A DNA stretch of 64,000 nt from a virus, in the IMG/VR virus record IMGVR_UViG_3300025104_000001, positions 26,768 through 90,767 of that record; one strand, given 5' to 3'. The stretch's first letter is position 1. Every line of letters begins with the position of its first letter. Below are positions 3,798 to 64,000 of this stretch, one piece after another. A model generated the notes under the pieces. That model was not told where the DNA came from, ran no database searches, and was given only the letters and a program-made list of their open reading frames with translations. The translations under genes and the position numbers were made by a program.

Positions 3798-4013
3798 TTA
3801 GAATAGTGCCTTAGCGGCACCAAGCATATAAATCGCAAGCAAACCCGTATTGACAACAATCAAGGAATTTTCTTTGATCCTGACTGCAAAAATCAACCAC
3901 AGGACGCTACCCGCATTGAAAGCCCAAACATTCAAAGGATAGGTGTTCAAGGATGTCAAAAGAGCACCCGCAATCGTCAAGACTGTAGCGCTCCACTTCA
4001 AAAACGAATTCAA
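3798..4013 (-). CDS. Small membrane protein
   Basis: 71 aa, three hydrophobic segments. Confidence 0.6.
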   Translation of the reverse strand: MNSFLKWSATVLTIAGALLTSLNTYPLNVWAFNAGSVLWLIFAVRIKENSLIVVNTGLLAIYMLGAAKALF

Positions 4014-4210
4014 GTGATTTCCTTACAATCAGAAACTTTGAGAACACCTTCAGTCACAATGACTCCGCCTTCAAGTCGTTGATACAACTCGGCAGTCTCT
4101 TTGATGTAGAAATGCATGATCTTACCCTTTTCGGTAATCAGAGTGAAGGGCATAGGATCTTTCTGAACTTGTTCCATGAATAGATTTTCGTTGTTGTTCA
4201 TCGTCTTCAT
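4010..4210 (-). CDS. Hypothetical protein
   Basis: ATG 4210 just downstream of a CTAGAC-N17-TATAAT promoter. Confidence 0.6.
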   Translation of the reverse strand: MKTMNNNENLFMEQVQKDPMPFTLITEKGKIMHFYIKETAELYQRLEGGVIVTEGVLKVSDCKEIT

Positions 4211-4216
4211 GCCTCC

Positions 4217-4245
4217 ATTATAACATGGTTTCAGACGATGTCTAG
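4217..4245 (-). promoter_or_regulatory. Phage early-type promoter
   Basis: CTAGAC-N17-TATAAT-GGAGGCAT; recurrent motif in this window. Confidence 0.65.
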
Positions 4246-4251
4246 GACTTT

Positions 4252-4894
4252 TTATCCGAGAGCATTGCCATAGATGAGGTGAAGACCGCGGAGCACTTTG
4301 TCCAAGTTGTTCCAGCCTCGGAAAACCGACCACAACTCAATGTGGTCAACCGCTACGTGGGTGGCCCCACGATCGTAAATCAAAGACTCCGGGCTCCCAA
4401 CATCCGCTGGTAACTTCGTTCGTACCCAAGGGCCATAGTCATCTGAGCGACGCTTATACTGGGCAACGAGCCGCCCTTTTCGGGCGGCGTGAGCGGCATC
4501 TTGAATAGCCTGCAGCGCCGTATGGATTTCGGCGGGAGCAGGAGTGATGTGAGGCATGTCATATGATGTCCGGATGCGTTGCACGGTGTCAAAATTGGAC
4601 CAGCCAGACCTAGCCTGCCACCCCAAGTACATAATAGCACAGCGCTTCAATGTTTCGTTTTCGCGTGCAAGTGCATCCCGCTCTTCAAGCAGCTCGCGGA
4701 TCGTGTCGGGGTTGCAAGCGGCGATCAGATGGGCGTCTGCCTTAACGTCTTGGGCGGTTCGGCAATGGCGGACTTCGGCCAGAAACCCGTTCGCTCTTTA
4801 CAAACGTCCCGCTATTGGTAGGGCAAACCCGCCACGGGCCCGGCGTCGGCCCCTTCGCTAGTGCCTTGCGGATTTCCTCGTAACGGTCAGCCAT
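4252..4894 (-). pseudogene. Frameshifted Ead/Ea22-like gene
   Basis: MADRYEEIRKALAKGPTPGPW... changes frame near 4780 into ...ADAHLIAACNPDTIRELLEERDAL..., which continues as track ORF 4252..4650. Confidence 0.55.
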
Positions 4895-5126
4895 TGCGGT
4901 TCTCCTTGAACAGTACAGCTTTGGCCTCCTTCAGCACTTGCATCGGCGTCTCGGGGTCAAACCCCAGGCGGCGATACGTGTCCGCTGATGGAAACCACGA
5001 AACCATCGCAGCCAAGGCCTTTCGCAGCCGCTCATTCTCGGCTTCCAGCGCGTCACGCTCTGCCATCAGAATCTTGGCATCAACGTCCTTCATGCACATC
5101 TCGATAAAATCACCGGTGTTCATCAT
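4887..5126 (-). CDS. Hypothetical protein
   Basis: 79-aa ORF with AAAGGAA RBS and upstream promoter. Confidence 0.6.
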   Translation of the reverse strand: MMNTGDFIEMCMKDVDAKILMAERDALEAENERLRKALAAMVSWFPSADTYRRLGFDPETPMQVLKEAKAVLFKENRNG

Positions 5127-5153
5127 GTTTCCTTTCGTTTACCGTATGACTAC

Positions 5154-5182
5154 ATTGTACAGCAAACAAAAGGGCCGTCTAG
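5154..5182 (-). promoter_or_regulatory. Phage early-type promoter
   Basis: CTAGAC-N17-TACAAT-GTAGTCAT. Confidence 0.55.
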
Positions 5183-5200
5183 CCTCTTTGTCAAAAAATT

Positions 5201-5674
5201 TCACGACCATTGAACCCCGCCGCTAACGACAAAGTTCTCAACTTTCAGCTTCACAAAGGTCATACCCTCGTCATCATGAGCCTGACGCTCGATCTCGGCG
5301 TTCACTTCAGCTTCGGTTTCATATACCTCGGGAAAAATATCTAGTCTGATGTAGCCATCTTGGATAAATCCAATCACCCAACCCTTCTTTTGCCCTCGTG
5401 CTTGAGCCTTAGCAGTCTCAATAAGCTTAGAAGCTTCGATTGCTTTTTTTGCCAAATCTTCATGCTTCACATAATCAGACTTGACCCAATTGGTTTTATA
5501 CTCACGCTTGAGTTGCAGGTTGTAACGGCGAGTACCATTCCGAACGCTACCAGACAGGATAGCGAAGGAACCGTCCTTCTTATTGCTCAGCAGTTGACTT
5601 GTTTCAGTGTTGAAAAAGTAACCATCAGAGATTTGACGGAAACCTTCCAAAGAGTTAACAGGGATAAGAGCCAT
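5201..5674 (-). CDS. Hypothetical protein
   Basis: 157-aa ORF with AAGGA RBS; CTAGAC-N18-TAAAAT upstream. Confidence 0.7.
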   Translation of the reverse strand: MALIPVNSLEGFRQISDGYFFNTETSQLLSNKKDGSFAILSGSVRNGTRRYNLQLKREYKTNWVKSDYVKHEDLAKKAIEASKLIETAKAQARGQKKGWVIGFIQDGYIRLDIFPEVYETEAEVNAEIERQAHDDEGMTFVKLKVENFVVSGGVQWS

Positions 5675-5767
5675 TTCACATTCCTTTCAGAGTTCAGAGC
5701 AATAACAACCAACGAAAATTTATTTTATAGGAAGGTCCTTGGGAAGTCTAGAGGTTGTTGCTGGTTT

Positions 5768-5827
5768 CTTGTATAACTTGTATAACTTGAATAACTTGAA
5801 TAACTTGTATAACTTGAATAACTTGTA
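5768..5827. repeat. 9-bp tandem repeat CTTG(T/A)ATAA, about 6.7 copies
   Basis: Read directly. Confidence 0.9.
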
Positions 5828-5970
5828 CTATTCACACATTGATTACTAGTTCTTTTTCAAGTTTCATCTCATGGGGAAAACTGCTCCAAGTGCAGGAGCA
5901 CTATATAATTTAACATTCACCGATTTACCGTACTCTACCCAATCCACTGATAGATGGGTAATTCCTTCTT

Positions 5971-6329
5971 TTACCATGTTGAACCTAAAGTATAACCTTT
6001 ATATTTTATCCACCTAGATGGGGTAACCCCATCTAGTCCTCGTTCTTTTGCTAATTTACTCTGTCGTATTTTAAATTCTTCTGTGTAGGGATGCCCTTTT
6101 ATTGATTTACCCTTATTTGGGTTAATTGGAATATCAATACCTAATTCTCTTGCTTTAATGTATTGATTACTTTTTTAGCACCGGGTGGGTGCTTGTTTAC
6201 ACTGTTATGGAAAGATTCCTTTTCAAAATTTGAAATTCTTCTATTCGGATTTTGTTTACAATATCTCTCATGATTTATTTTTGAATTATTATTCTTACAT
6301 TCTTTGTTGCAAAAATTACATATTAGCAT
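5971..6329 (-). pseudogene. Decayed free-standing homing endonuclease
   Basis: MLICNFCNKECK...HERYC Zn-finger; frameshift in A-run 6171-6176 to SNQYIKARELG...KGHPYTEEFKIRQSKLAKERG (NUMOD-like)...YKGYTLGSTW*, stopping where a nuclease domain would begin. Confidence 0.55.
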
Positions 6330-6354
6330 TTTATTATTCTTATAATTACATTTT

Positions 6355-6436
6355 GTAAATTCGTTGCCGTAGACCACTTGGCTAATCCAGCACAATATGC
6401 CATAGGCGGCTGCTCTACCAACTGAGTTAAAAGAAT
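6355..6436 (-). pseudogene. Two truncated tRNA 5' halves
   Basis: TAACTCAGTTGGTAGAGCAGCCGCCT and GCTGGATTAGCCAAGTGGTCTACGGCAACGAATTT: D-arms present, no T-arm or CCA. Confidence 0.5.
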
Positions 6437-6442
6437 GAATTT

Positions 6443-6517
6443 TGGTGGAGCTGCGGGGAATCGAACCCCGAACTGCGCCTTGCAAGGGCGCTGTGTTCCC
6501 AATTATACCACAACCCC
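6443..6517 (-). tRNA. tRNA-Ala(TGC)
   Basis: Cloverleaf; GCGCC-CT-TGC-AA-GGCGC; GGTTCGATTCC; CCA. Confidence 0.9.
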
Positions 6518-6553
6518 AAAAATCTACATTGTTTTGTATATATTCAAAACGTT

Positions 6554-6629
6554 TGGGATGACCCACGGGATTTGAACCCATACTGCCAAGGTCACAACAT
6601 AGAGTTCTAATCATTACACTAAAGTCACC
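6554..6629 (-). tRNA. tRNA-His(GTG), degenerate
   Basis: G-1, C73, CCA and T-arm present; anticodon stem CTATG/CTTGG and D-stem mismatched. Confidence 0.65.
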
Positions 6630-26360: not shown

Positions 26361-26846
26361 ATGATTCTTCTATTGGGCTCTCTAATTCCTTCACATGCTT
26401 CAAACTACAAAGCGATTGACGCCATTGAAGCCCTGTCAAATGCAAACAAAGAAATGGTTTGTCTGGCTAAGGTCATTTATGATGAAGCACGAGGTGAAAC
26501 GCCTCGTGGCATGCAAGCCGTTGCCCACGTTGTTTTGAATCGAGCAAAACATCAAGACTACCCTGGTACAATCTGCGGCGTTGCATATCAAAAGCATCGT
26601 GGCGTTTGTCAATTCAGCGGAATGTGCAAAAAGAAGACTAAGCAGTTTGATGCCGAGTCTTTGAATGTAGCATATAGAGTTTTGGTTTTGAAGGACGTAA
26701 AAGACCCAACCCGAGGCGCAACACACTTTCACAATGATACCACATCACCGCCATGGAGCAAAACATATGTCAGAACAGCAAGAATTGGAAAACACACTTT
26801 CTATAAACCAGGCTATCGACAAAATCCAAGTAGTCGAGGAGATTGA
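26361..26846 (+). CDS. SleB-like cell wall hydrolase (Hydrolase_2)
   Basis: CLAKVIYDEARGE, VVLNR, CQFS, GATHFH, IGKHTFY; N-terminal hydrophobic signal. Confidence 0.85.
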   Translation: MILLLGSLIPSHASNYKAIDAIEALSNANKEMVCLAKVIYDEARGETPRGMQAVAHVVLNRAKHQDYPGTICGVAYQKHRGVCQFSGMCKKKTKQFDAESLNVAYRVLVLKDVKDPTRGATHFHNDTTSPPWSKTYVRTARIGKHTFYKPGYRQNPSSRGD

Positions 26847-60540: not shown

Positions 60541-61968
60541 TTATTCTACCTTGATGCCTGAGAACCTTGGCTTGTTGCCTACACCCAAAGCTGGCTTCTT
60601 GAACTTGATTTCCCCTGTATCTTGGTCAATCTCCTCATCTTTACGCTTAGGACTTCCGTTTGAAACGGGTCGTGTCTTTGTCATCTGAACCTCAGACTCT
60701 GCATCAAACAACCTCATCTTCGAGCGATCAATACCTACAACGAAACGGAGCTTGCTTGCCATGTCTGAAAAGCGATTCTTCAACTGTTTGAACATGACAA
60801 CATTCTGCTCGTCTAGTTCTTCAGTACGAATCATAGCCAAAAGGATATCGGCGGTCATGGCTAGGCCATGGCTGTCTGAAATTTCCTTCAGACCAACATC
60901 TGTCGTATCCGTGCCCTCACGATTCAACTGAGTAGCTGAAACAATAGGCAGATTGTACTCAATAGCCAGACCACGTAGTTCTTCACAAATGGCCTTGACA
61001 TATTGATAAGAGTTCACCATGCCTGCCTTGAATCGGCTTGAAGAACAGATGTTGATGTAGTCAACGTAGATGATGTCTGGCACGAAGTCTTTCTTCAACT
61101 TCAGCTCATTGATGAGCGCCCTGAATTGCGTAACACCCGCACTAGCGGTGGGGTACTCTTTGACAATCAAGCGACCCTTACAGCCATCCAATGCCTTGTT
61201 CAACCGACGTCTGTATTCTTGCAATGACAGATTAGGTAGATCTTGAATCCTCATGTTCAAGATGTTAGCGTCAATGCGCTCCGAGATACGTTCTTCTGCC
61301 ATTTCCATGGTGATATAAAGGACGTTCTTGTCTGCTAAGAGGTTCCGTGCCGCACAATGACAAAGGAACAGAGATTTACCAGCACCAGTTGATGCTGATA
61401 CAACTGCAAGAGTTTTCCGAGGCAAACCTCCGTTTGTGATTTCGTTCAGTGCTTCAATGTCAAAAGGAATCTTGTATTCATTGATTTGATGCAACATTTT
61501 GTAGCGTTGCTCAATCATGGTCATGAAGTCGTGACCGATGTTGGTATCAAATGACACCGATAGAGCATTCTTCAAAATGTCCGGGATCTGGCCTACGTCC
61601 GCCTTATCGTCCTCTATCATTGCAGCGGCGTCTACAATGGCATTGAACAGTGCCTTGTCCTTGCAGAACTTTTCCGTATGCTCAACAAGCCAATCAATCG
61701 AGGGCGCTTTGCTACGCTTTGTCAGTCTATTGACAAGATCAACCGCAGTCTCATAGTCTGATTGTTTTAGTCCTTTCGTGTCCTTGATTTCAATACGTAG
61801 CTCATCTTGAGTAGGTGCCTTGTTGTACTTGGAAACGAACTCTGAGATTTTTGTGAAGACGATAGAATGGGCGTTCTCGCCAAAATACTCATCCTTCAAA
61901 AAAGGGAGAACCCTTCGCATATACTCATCATTGTGCAACAGGTTCTCCAAGATTACTTCTTCTATCAT
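60541..61968 (-). CDS. 41: Replicative helicase gp41
   Basis: ASTGAGKS, YITMEMAEE, VKEYPT, VDYINI, EELRGLA, ATQ, KQLKNR. Confidence 0.95.
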   Translation of the reverse strand: MIEEVILENLLHNDEYMRRVLPFLKDEYFGENAHSIVFTKISEFVSKYNKAPTQDELRIEIKDTKGLKQSDYETAVDLVNRLTKRSKAPSIDWLVEHTEKFCKDKALFNAIVDAAAMIEDDKADVGQIPDILKNALSVSFDTNIGHDFMTMIEQRYKMLHQINEYKIPFDIEALNEITNGGLPRKTLAVVSASTGAGKSLFLCHCAARNLLADKNVLYITMEMAEERISERIDANILNMRIQDLPNLSLQEYRRRLNKALDGCKGRLIVKEYPTASAGVTQFRALINELKLKKDFVPDIIYVDYINICSSSRFKAGMVNSYQYVKAICEELRGLAIEYNLPIVSATQLNREGTDTTDVGLKEISDSHGLAMTADILLAMIRTEELDEQNVVMFKQLKNRFSDMASKLRFVVGIDRSKMRLFDAESEVQMTKTRPVSNGSPKRKDEEIDQDTGEIKFKKPALGVGNKPRFSGIKVE

Positions 61969-61997: not shown

Positions 61998-62339
61998 TCA
62001 GGAATCATCTTGTTTGTCAAATTCTTTCAGACGTTCCATAGCTAGTAAATAATTGATGAGATTACCCACGATAACGTTCAGTTCATCCGACTCCACGTTC
62101 TGTTTGTCCTTGTTCACTGCGGTGTAGTCAATCTCAAGCTGCGAACCTTTCACCTCGACACTACGGAGAATGATGATATGGTCCTTGAAGTCACCATCCT
62201 GAAGCACAACGGCTCCGATGATTTTCTTCTCGTCCATCATGCGAGCTTCTTCATCGCTCTCCACAGGGATCGAATAAAAAGAAGGCACAACCTTCCTCAA
62301 ATCTTGGATAATTGCATAGACATCATTTTTCGTCTGCAT
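61998..62339 (-). CDS. Hypothetical protein, gp40-like by synteny
   Basis: Lies between uvsX and gene 41 as in T4. Confidence 0.5.
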   Translation of the reverse strand: MQTKNDVYAIIQDLRKVVPSFYSIPVESDEEARMMDEKKIIGAVVLQDGDFKDHIIILRSVEVKGSQLEIDYTAVNKDKQNVESDELNVIVGNLINYLLAMERLKEFDKQDDS

Positions 62340-62859
62340 CGGCTTCTCCATGTTCATCAGACATGATGGATTCGTTCATCACCAATTGGTATTTCTTACA
62401 GATGAAGTCCTTGAACTTCTGGTTCTTCAGGATGTCTTCCCAAAATTCTGCCGTGTTTGTTTCCTTGGCACGATACTTGCCTTCAACCAATTCGCCCGTA
62501 TCAGGATCAACCTTCTGATACCAACCCATACTTGGCTTAGTAACGAAGCCTCCCTCAAGGGCAAGGTCTAGCAAACCCGACCAACGGGTAATGCCCCCGT
62601 CAAACATAACAGTCAAAGGAATCTTGGACTTCTCTTTGACGCGACGAGACTTCTCGATGTTGATGGTGAAAGTATAACCTGCAACGTCCGTGCCATCTTT
62701 CTCTTGAGAACGACCAATGATCCAGATGTCGTTTGCAGAATAGTATCCACCGGTATTATGAGTTATGAGACCATTTTCAAGGATGTAGTGTTCGACCTCA
62801 TCAACTGAAATATCAAAGACGGGAACGTTACCGATTGATTTCTTGCTTACCAATTTCAT
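62323..62859 (-). CDS. uvsX: Split-intein C-fragment (35 aa) fused to the C-terminal part of UvsX recombinase
   Basis: MKLVSKKSIGNVPVFDISVDEVEHYILENGLITHN|T (intein blocks F/G), then GGYYSANDIWIIGRSQEKDG..EKSR.VKEKSKIP..GGI..WSGLL. Confidence 0.9.
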   Translation of the reverse strand: MKLVSKKSIGNVPVFDISVDEVEHYILENGLITHNTGGYYSANDIWIIGRSQEKDGTDVAGYTFTINIEKSRRVKEKSKIPLTVMFDGGITRWSGLLDLALEGGFVTKPSMGWYQKVDPDTGELVEGKYRAKETNTAEFWEDILKNQKFKDFICKKYQLVMNESIMSDEHGEADADEK

Positions 62860-62927
62860 TCATTATTTCCTTTGCAATTTGCTTAACATAATTTGTGGGG
62901 TCTTTAGCATGCTTTTCAAATTGCACT

Positions 62928-63851
62928 CTAAAAAACCTTATACCCTAATCCTTCCATGAATTCTTGTTTCACTGCGTCTCTACGCTTTGCTTCTTCCGAT
63001 CTATGCCAAAATTCGCTATCATATTCTATAACAATTTTCAGAGCCGTGTCTACAAAGTCATATTTTACATACCCCAATCCTTTGATGAATTTACCAAATT
63101 CTCTTTCACCGTAATGAGGTTTAACGAATTGAATTTCCTCACACAAGCTATCAAAAAATCTAACCGATGATTTTGAGCAATATGCATAACGAGAGGACAT
63201 AAATTCGGCATACTCGTCTTCAGTTTTACCTTGACTAATCCAATACTCTACACACCATGGTTGATGTTTTCTTCGCTCTTCGGCTGAATACTTTTGAGCA
63301 TATTTGTTGCCATTGCTTGTTTGAAGTGCTGTTACCTTTTCAGCGGCTTCTTCTTCTGAAAGACCACGAGCAATCCAGTAATTCTTATTCCAGCGTGATA
63401 CGGATGAACCATTTGATTTGACTTTTTGATGAAATTTGATTGCGTTCTGAGATTGGGTCTCTTTTACCTTTACAATGGCCTCATCTTTAGTGTAGCCTCG
63501 CTTAACCCAATATTCCACACACCTCGGAGAATTTTCTTTTTGAATTTCACTTGTGAAGCGTCTTGCTTCATCTTCAGAATAACCCCGGACCAACCAATAT
63601 GTTTTGCTTCGTCTAGACCCGCCCAGTTTTCCACTTGGATTAACTATTGACTTTATTATTTTGTAAATTTCCACCATTCCCCTTAGTTCGTTTCCGTGCG
63701 CAAGCAATTTTGAAACGATAATGGGGTTTTTGAGGTTTAGGTCTTTATCAAAAGCAGAATATATCATCAGCATTTCTTCATCTGATGGCTGTTTGTTAAG
63801 GTCAAGTGAAGGGAAATTTTTCTTGTACCATTCTATCGTTTGTTTTTTCAT
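62928..63851 (-). CDS. Free-standing homing endonuclease (YW..RG.SEEEA repeats plus Vsr/DUF559-like domain), C-terminus clipped by a frameshift
   Basis: Repeats; YDF..KIVIEYD..FWH..RD..K..GYKV; removing one T at 62930-62935 extends it to 62828. Confidence 0.78.
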   Translation of the reverse strand: MKKQTIEWYKKNFPSLDLNKQPSDEEMLMIYSAFDKDLNLKNPIIVSKLLAHGNELRGMVEIYKIIKSIVNPSGKLGGSRRSKTYWLVRGYSEDEARRFTSEIQKENSPRCVEYWVKRGYTKDEAIVKVKETQSQNAIKFHQKVKSNGSSVSRWNKNYWIARGLSEEEAAEKVTALQTSNGNKYAQKYSAEERRKHQPWCVEYWISQGKTEDEYAEFMSSRYAYCSKSSVRFFDSLCEEIQFVKPHYGEREFGKFIKGLGYVKYDFVDTALKIVIEYDSEFWHRSEEAKRRDAVKQEFMEGLGYKVF

Positions 63852-63853
63852 AT

Positions 63854-63902
63854 GTGCCTCCTGAATGTACTTTTATATAAAAACTGTTTTTTCAGGAGGC
63901 AC
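63854..63902 (-). promoter_or_regulatory. RBS-sequestering hairpin upstream of the endonuclease
   Basis: GTGCCTCCTGAA...TTCAGGAGGCAC 12-bp inverted repeat covering AGGAGG. Confidence 0.7.
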
Positions 63903-63909
63903 TGGCCTG

Positions 63910-64000
63910 TTAGTGACGGATAAACTCCATATCGTAAGTGAGGTCCTTTGCCATCACCCACTTCTCCGAGCCGTCACCCATTCTAACAAGAAACGGATGT
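63910..64000 (-). CDS. 3' end of the N-terminal gene half ending in a split-intein N-fragment (partial)
   Basis: Manual translation HPFLVRMGDGSEKWVMAKDLTYDMEFIRH*: intein block B His and W..A.DL motif, then stop. Confidence 0.8.
   Translation of the reverse strand, partial: HPFLVRMGDGSEKWVMAKDLTYDMEFIRH

Follow-up and report, generated by a model that had tools for sequence, protein, structure and literature searches.

How can a phage recombinase be made from a gene that has been broken in two, with the gene of another protein lodged in the break? The question is raised by uvsX, which lies at the end of a 64,000-nucleotide (nt) stretch of viral DNA (IMG/VR record IMGVR_UViG_3300025104_000001, positions 26,768 to 90,767), here called the window. 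An earlier note on the window had proposed that UvsX is assembled by protein trans-splicing, and our analysis supports its core: a fractured uvsX, a canonical split intein, a free-standing Vsr-like endonuclease and a Thr at position +1 of the native GG/TG site (a slash marks the splice junction throughout). We consider it very probable that UvsX is encoded as two polypeptides, UvsX(1-213)-IntN(97 amino acids, aa) and IntC(35 aa)-UvsX-C(143 aa), where IntN and IntC are the N- and C-terminal halves of the intein, that these are spliced in trans, and that the intein was split by invasion of an EDxHD nuclease gene. The analysis shows the anatomy of the locus, homology, intact catalytic residues, a host protein restored without gaps, and recurrence of the arrangement; splicing itself, control by the hairpin and homing are inferred from these. 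All parts of the gene lie on the minus strand, at the coordinates given in the earlier note:

63910..64000, minus strand: tail of IntN, 29 codons plus stop, from the block-B His (HPFLV...EFIRH, stop), with its 5' end cut by the contig end; open reading frame (ORF) 63999-63910, stop codon 63912-63910
63909-63852, minus strand: spacer of 58 nt between the IntN stop and the nuclease ORF
63854..63902, minus strand: predicted RNA hairpin in the spacer, with a perfect 12-bp stem (GUGCCUCCUGAA / UUCAGGAGGCAC)
62928..63851, minus strand: free-standing homing-endonuclease ORF of 307 aa, its ATG 5 nt after AGGAGG
62828..62927, minus strand: frame-shifted continuation of the nuclease domain (RVQFEKHAKDP...EINR, stop), reached when one base is skipped at GTTTTTTAG
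62755..62859, minus strand: IntC, 35 aa (MKLVS...LITHN; MKLVSKKSIGNVPVFDISVDEVEHYILENGLITHN), with its own ATG at 62859 and an AAGGA ribosome-binding site
62323..62754, minus strand: UvsX C-extein, 143 aa plus stop, with Thr+1 first (TGGYYSANDIWIIG..., TGGYYSAN) and matches to PF21134 and 3io5

The two halves of uvsX and of its intein

The anatomy of the locus, with an IntN tail that stops at 63910, an endonuclease gene, a new ATG for a 35-aa IntC ending in His-Asn, and the Thr of the GG/TG site, is in every detail as the earlier note had described it. IntN and IntC share a reading frame and the nuclease ORF lies in another, so no single correction fuses all three ORFs. The open-ended ORF at 63999-63910 translates as HPFLVRMGDGSEKWVMAKDLTYDMEFIRH and then stops. 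The note had placed the N-extein outside the window; it lies beyond the source contig as well, which ends at window position 64000. When metagenome contigs were scanned for an exact match to 40 bases at the end of the window, contig L103 (2975 bases) came up; it overlaps the window with 126 of 126 bases identical. A scan of viral contigs with an exact pattern of that end gave no match, and neither did a megablast search of the locus against the phage collection. L103:2005-2937 codes for 310 aa, of which 213 are the N-terminal part of UvsX, ending ...AIVSGG, and 97 are an IntN that opens with Cys1 straight after that sequence (CLTENTKIRM) and carries the block-B motif SDKH. The N-extein and IntN residues 1-68 take up L103:2005-2846, and the rest of IntN is the window's 29 residues. 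Both things that the note had suggested looking for in adjacent DNA, a UvsX-N and a Cys-starting IntN, are thus present on the overlapping contig.

The host protein is well defined on both sides of the break. The N half matches the Pfam RecA family (PF00154) at 2.1e-10, and the C half matches T4_UVSX_C (PF21134) at 2.8e-19 and the T4 UvsX structure (PDB 3io5) at 1.8e-39. Joined, the exteins make a protein of 356 aa (213 + 143) that is 81.7% identical to the intein-less UvsX of a related locus (L002). The extein junction aligns without a gap to this protein and to the intein-less UvsX of a second locus (L006), reading SGG/TGG here and GGG/TGS in L002.

Single-sequence searches of IntN against Pfam and PDB were weak, with Hint-type Pfam matches below the curated cut-offs, and the identity of the intein was established with profiles built from seven IntN sequences (A3) and seven IntC sequences (A4). 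The IntN profile has the gp41-1 intein (6qaz, 8.9e-9) as its best true match and also matches the PI-SceI, DnaE and DnaB inteins, and the IntC profile matches the Npu DnaE IntC over its full length (4lx3_B, 1.7e-7) and also the C-terminus of the Mxe GyrA intein. The 'Tako8' entries at the top of the IntN matches were rejected as a repeat-protein artefact, each stretch having an i-E (independent E-value) of about 7.

The residues expected of an active intein are in place. At its N-terminus IntC is basic (MKLVSKKSIGN); further on it carries the block-F Asp (VFDISV), the penultimate His of block G and a terminal Asn (THN/T). In block B, Ser66, Asp67 and His69 of SDKH are invariant in the IntN profile, and this His is the first residue of the window fragment. 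Cys1, which for this phage lies on L103 and not in the window, is present in 114 of 114 parsed N halves of relatives. Among relatives of the C half, IntC ends in His-Asn in 114 of 114 cases, followed by Thr in 106 and by Ser in 8. The earlier note had thought Thr+1 unusual; in this family it is the rule, being the conserved native residue of the site.

If the locus follows the class 1 pathway, the two intein halves would pair into one HINT fold, and Cys1 would undergo an N-S acyl shift. Thr+1 would then attack the thioester to form a branched ester, the terminal Asn35 would cyclise with the aid of His34, and an O-N shift would leave a peptide bond at ...SGG-TGG... (junction ...IVSGG-TGGYYSANDIWIIGR) in the 356-aa UvsX, just past the region of the L2 DNA-binding loop.

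The endonuclease gene between the halves

The N-terminal region of the nuclease is helical, with four YWxxRGxxxxEA-type repeats, and its C-terminal part has a Vsr-like/EDxHD (DUF559) core (YDFVD...IEYDSEFWH...D..K). Single-sequence Pfam and PDB searches were weak here too, and profiles were needed. In the nuclease profile (A1) the residues D265, D268, E276, H283 and D292 never vary, and the profile finds the I-Bth0305I catalytic domain (3r3p) at 1.8e-4. On this profile match the nuclease belongs, like I-Bth0305I, to the EDxHD (Vsr-like) family, in line with the Vsr-like endonuclease that the earlier note had placed between the halves. Nucleases of this kind were predicted in fractured genes by Dassa, London, Stoddard, Schueler-Furman and Pietrokovski (2009; PMC2677866) and characterised by Taylor et al. 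(PMC3239194). A Foldseek search with the nuclease model (pLDDT 79.5) gives a suggestive fold match to Vsr-type structures, with 3r3p_B as the best local match (prob 0.89, TMt 0.50) and 1vsr and 3hrl also listed. Five homologues (P0122-P0126), one of them labelled 'very-short-patch-repair endonuclease' by its source, are 39-45% identical to the nuclease and, at 327-359 aa, 20-50 aa longer, with uninterrupted ORFs.

Relatives of the nuclease also occur in other fractured uvsX genes, at L069 and L076, and elsewhere. Three loci (L070, L071 and L072, about 3970-6600 in each) have the same EDxHD family between split-intein halves of another RecA-like gene, with IntC ends reading HHN/SGPEYAAS or NHN/TGPEYAAS; the insertion seems to occupy the corresponding site of another lineage of recombinases. 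At five more (L075, L078, L080, L084 and L098), relatives of the nuclease split inteins N-proximally, with upstream ORFs that end about 25-30 aa after G-x-G-K-C, so that a very short IntN is paired with a long IntC. These may be terminase inteins, and they resemble the atypically split inteins already known from terminases.

We suggest that the free-standing homing-endonuclease gene invaded the loop in which inteins usually carry their endonuclease, and that it thereby split the intein. In mixed infections such a nuclease would cut intein-less uvsX alleles, and the whole cassette would be copied into them.

Translation of the nuclease is probably held down by the hairpin in the spacer, which would bury the ribosome-binding site. 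The 12-bp hairpin has a folding energy of -22.1 kcal/mol (z = -4.48; none of 200 shuffled sequences matches it in stability), its 3' arm contains the nuclease Shine-Dalgarno sequence AGGAGG, and its loop is A/U-rich and includes UAUAUAAAAG. Comparable hairpins lie 5' of unrelated endonuclease genes in four other loci (L013, L068, L007 and L066), and Dassa et al. (PMC2677866), who saw such hairpins at 15 out of 16 loci, connected them with repression of translation.

The nuclease ORF ends early. It runs out at six T followed by TAG (GTTTTTTAG on the minus strand, window 62927-62936, with the T run at 62929-62934). This point corresponds to position 85 in the 109-position DUF559 profile, so the catalytic domain is incomplete as encoded. 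Skipping one base there prolongs the nuclease domain by 32 codons, in a frame that would overlap the start of IntC by 32 nt. The read-through raises the DUF559 score from 17.3 to 28.9 bits (+11.6; cut-off 20.6) and its coverage from 46-85 to 46-108 of 109, and the MTES_1575 score from 20.5 to 34.0 bits (+13.5) and its coverage from 38-73 to 38-96 of 96. It is this Pfam gain that we rely on for the domain end, as the shifted-frame tail, aligned pairwise to the tails of the homologues, scores no better than shuffles. Two contigs on record encode exactly this 307-aa product, which makes it probable that the frameshift is genuine.

Three causes of the early stop come into question: the homing gene may have decayed, the sequence may contain an error or, with lower probability, the site may serve +1 frameshifting. 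Homing-endonuclease genes often decay. The possibility that the stop is no sign of decay, and reflects either a miscalled base among the six T or a site of +1 ribosomal frameshifting that limits production of full-length nuclease, concerns the endonuclease only; we hold it to be real but clearly the less favoured account. In its support, the shifted frame encodes the real domain end, the extension would again run into the downstream gene, an overlap that fractured genes typically show, and the same 307-aa product comes from both contigs. In the sequence UUU UAG A, tRNA-Phe could re-pair perfectly one base on, and AAGG stands two bases upstream. However, a single T inserted into GTTTTTAGA yields exactly the observed sequence, so the likeness to a slippery site plus stop is trivial, and the homologues are uninterrupted. 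That UUU-UAG-A gives full-length endonuclease only through rare +1 frameshifting is a minor possibility. As the ORF stands, the frameshift takes away the end of the catalytic domain, and the cassette may as a result have lost its mobility.

Recurrence of the arrangement and rival readings

The split intein at this site is not rare, and public data contain it often. In a set of 65 related viral loci the site is empty (SGG-TG) in 62, two (L007 and L013) share the split position of the window, and in one (L066) uvsX is split about 12 residues upstream. When the C half was compared with a large protein collection, 659 proteins with lengths of 97-312 aa matched it, and an IntC is present in 114 of the best 120 short UvsX-C clusters. 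On the other side of the break, 128 clusters match IntN, and all 114 that could be parsed have Cys1 after (S/G/P)GG. Nearly all of these (109) are separate N halves with an IntN of mostly 91-97 aa, and the remaining five are mini-inteins in one piece (129-134 aa), inserted at the same site and 45-52% identical to this phage's IntN plus IntC. Compared with them, the break falls in the canonical loop.

L007, L013, L069 and L076 have the same three-ORF layout, as do the cultured phages HY03 (a Tequatrovirus) and TG1 (a Yersinia phage), for both of which we checked the arrangement by translation; about 16 further cultured phages have tblastn matches that begin at IntC residue 1. In the records of the cultured phages the pieces are named 'DNA repair protein', 'homing endonuclease' and 'recombinase', and the split intein is unannotated. 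The same intein site has been joined by at least three kinds of endonuclease: EDxHD (the window, L069 and L076), HNH (L013) and GIY-YIG-type (HY03 and L007).

Two of these loci have features of their own. In L066 (4223-6492) the insertion is at a second uvsX site, NHTYQ/C ... SHN/TQEMF, which is also split, and the free-standing endonuclease there has an I-TevI-type DNA-binding domain (1.9e-8). In TG1 (L067:1996-2399), the IntN stop is followed by about 400 bases without gene annotation before the annotated endonuclease begins, a product of 201 aa that carries the note 'class I homing endonuclease C-terminus (GIY-YIG-Cterm)/group I intron endonuclease' and may be a decayed homing gene.

Several points weigh against our reading of the window. 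The N half is taken from a second assembly, and the last 3 bases of L103 differ from the window. Block B carries Ser where Thr is usual (SDKH). Splicing itself is deduced from the class 1 intein pathway for a locus known from its sequence. The exact late-promoter sequence TATAAATA is absent from the hairpin loop, the Foldseek matches of the nuclease to Vsr-type nucleases are not significant by E-value (none at E <= 0.001 for the whole model), and the endonuclease ORF is truncated, which makes homing in this genome doubtful.

Trans-splicing could also be more than the removal of a selfish passenger. As the junction lies right after the L2 single-stranded-DNA-binding loop and the reaction would depend on the thiol of Cys1, splicing could gate UvsX after translation and set the time or the conditions of its activity, for example through redox state, single-stranded DNA or the relative expression of the halves. 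We think this unlikely, and mention it as speculation.

We hold it very unlikely that the pieces of UvsX stay unspliced, either held together non-covalently by the intein halves or left as a dead gene with recombination supplied otherwise. Intein-less fractured genes with working parts do exist, such as the Aeh1 nrdA cited by Dassa et al. (PMC2677866), and sequence is what speaks for splicing here. However, Cys1, the block-B His, the block-F Asp, His-Asn and Thr+1 are all intact and have been kept over more than 100 diverged clusters, which is expected only if splicing is under selection, and a retained insertion of ~130 aa beside the L2 DNA-binding region would be unlikely to be tolerated.

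A further rival, which we regard as having almost no chance of being right, blames errors of assembly or sequencing for the three ORFs and takes them for a single cis-intein with an embedded endonuclease domain. Contiguous mini-inteins do occur at the site, and the nuclease ORF does show one apparent homopolymer frameshift, but the known cis forms are mini-inteins without an endonuclease. In the window the nuclease is in another frame, behind a stop and the 58-nt spacer and with its own AGGAGG and ATG, and IntC likewise has its own ATG and ribosome-binding site. The same layout appears in L007, L013, L069 and L076 and in the finished genomes of HY03 and TG1, and separate halves are known in numbers (109 N halves and 114 C halves). 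The fusion of all three ORFs into one cis-intein, which the earlier note had named as a finding that would overturn it, is thus contradicted by the different frames, the separate starts and ribosome-binding sites, and a layout seen in more than 100 independent clusters as well as in finished genomes. Finally, a group I intron in place of an intein was rejected, as an Rfam search of the locus at E <= 1 returned only a chance match to a long non-coding RNA.

The neighbourhood of the gene has the T4 order uvsX-40-41. A gp41-type helicase is encoded at 60541-61968, downstream of UvsX-C, and between the two lies an ORF of 119 aa (61998-62357, minus strand) that overlaps the stop region of uvsX-C. 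This ORF had no match in a Pfam search and sits in the position of gene 40, the head vertex assembly chaperone gene that takes the corresponding place in HY03 and TG1. On L103, directly 5' of uvsX-N and overlapping it by 4 nt, is an ORF of 138 aa (L103:1592-2008) with a cytidine/dCMP-deaminase-type zinc motif (HAE...PCxxC).

Relation to known systems

The closest parallels are the fractured genes described by Dassa et al. in 2009 (PMC2677866), which include gp41-1, gp41-8, NrdJ-1, IMPDH-1, NrdA-2 and others. As in those, the host N-terminus with IntN is followed by a short non-coding spacer, a free-standing endonuclease gene on the same strand (GIY-YIG or Vsr-like in the 2009 set) and IntC with the host C-terminus. 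The two also share a phage origin and a hairpin over the start of endonuclease translation, and a member of the 2009 set, gp41-1, is the best true match of the IntN profile. The spacer is longer here, at 58 nt against 27-51, and whereas the 3' end of the endonuclease gene overlaps the downstream gene in the 2009 set, here that overlap has been lost by the frameshift and exists only on read-through. The hosts in that paper are gp41, IMPDH, DnaE, NrdA, NrdJ, ligase, terminase and a locus in a gene for a protein of unknown function, and UvsX appears only as a neighbouring ORF (PMC2677866). Thus uvsX is not among the fractured hosts named in 2009 and is otherwise a textbook fractured gene. Full-text literature searches found no published UvsX split intein and no report of uvsX as a fractured host.

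In cultured Straboviridae (HY03, NC_031047; vB_YenM_TG1, NC_028820; and about 16 more) the intein occupies the same GG/TG site with the same Cys1, His-Asn and Thr+1, and the C half is about 50-54% identical to that of the window. HY03 and TG1 share an IntN of ~96 aa, an IntC of 35 aa and the uvsX-40-41 order with the window, but have another type of endonuclease ('homing endonuclease' in HY03 and 'GIY-YIG homing endonuclease' in TG1), not EDxHD. What the window adds is an EDxHD cassette in an intein that elsewhere has GIY-YIG-type or HNH genes, together with a frameshifted nuclease.

The nuclease has its own precedent in I-Bth0305I, the EDxHD prototype (PMC3239194; 3r3p), which has the same arrangement of an N-terminal DNA-binding part and a C-terminal nuclease. 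The two genes also share a RecA-family host, where each lies within or next to the stretch coding for the L2 region. That of I-Bth0305I is carried by a group I intron in the recA of a Bacillus phage, and that of the window is a truncated ORF between the halves of a split intein. The target of I-Bth0305I in the Bacillus phage recA spans the L2 region, where the recA of M. leprae has an intein site too (PMC3239194). The earlier note had called a RecA-family host unusual; the L2 region of RecA is a documented insertion site and a hot spot for inteins and introns (PMC3239194).

The inteins of M. leprae and M. tuberculosis RecA and of archaeal RadA also have RecA-family hosts, but these are contiguous and reside in cellular genes. 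The DnaE inteins of Npu and Ssp have the same canonical split (about 100 + 35-36 aa), the same Cys1 and an IntC that can be aligned end to end, and differ from the uvsX intein, whose halves are 1 kb apart and which has Thr+1. The halves of DnaE split inteins are encoded at distant loci, with no endonuclease gene, and have Cys+1. Atypically split 'VidaL UvsX' inteins with a very short IntN, of metagenomic origin, were reportedly described by Thiel and colleagues in Angew Chem in 2014. The intein of the window is split at the canonical site, unlike these, which are reportedly split near the N-terminus.

For annotation, the consequence is that the two halves of such genes are routinely mislabelled as 'DNA repair protein', 'recombinase' or 'hypothetical protein'. 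For protein engineering, the family is a source of over 100 naturally occurring versions of a small, canonically split intein (about 92-97 + 35 aa) with Cys1 and Thr+1. For the evolution of split inteins, an uninvaded mini-intein and variously invaded forms at one and the same site are the intermediates that have been proposed for their origin. With its split intein and homing endonuclease, uvsX joins the replication and repair genes that survive breakage in this way.

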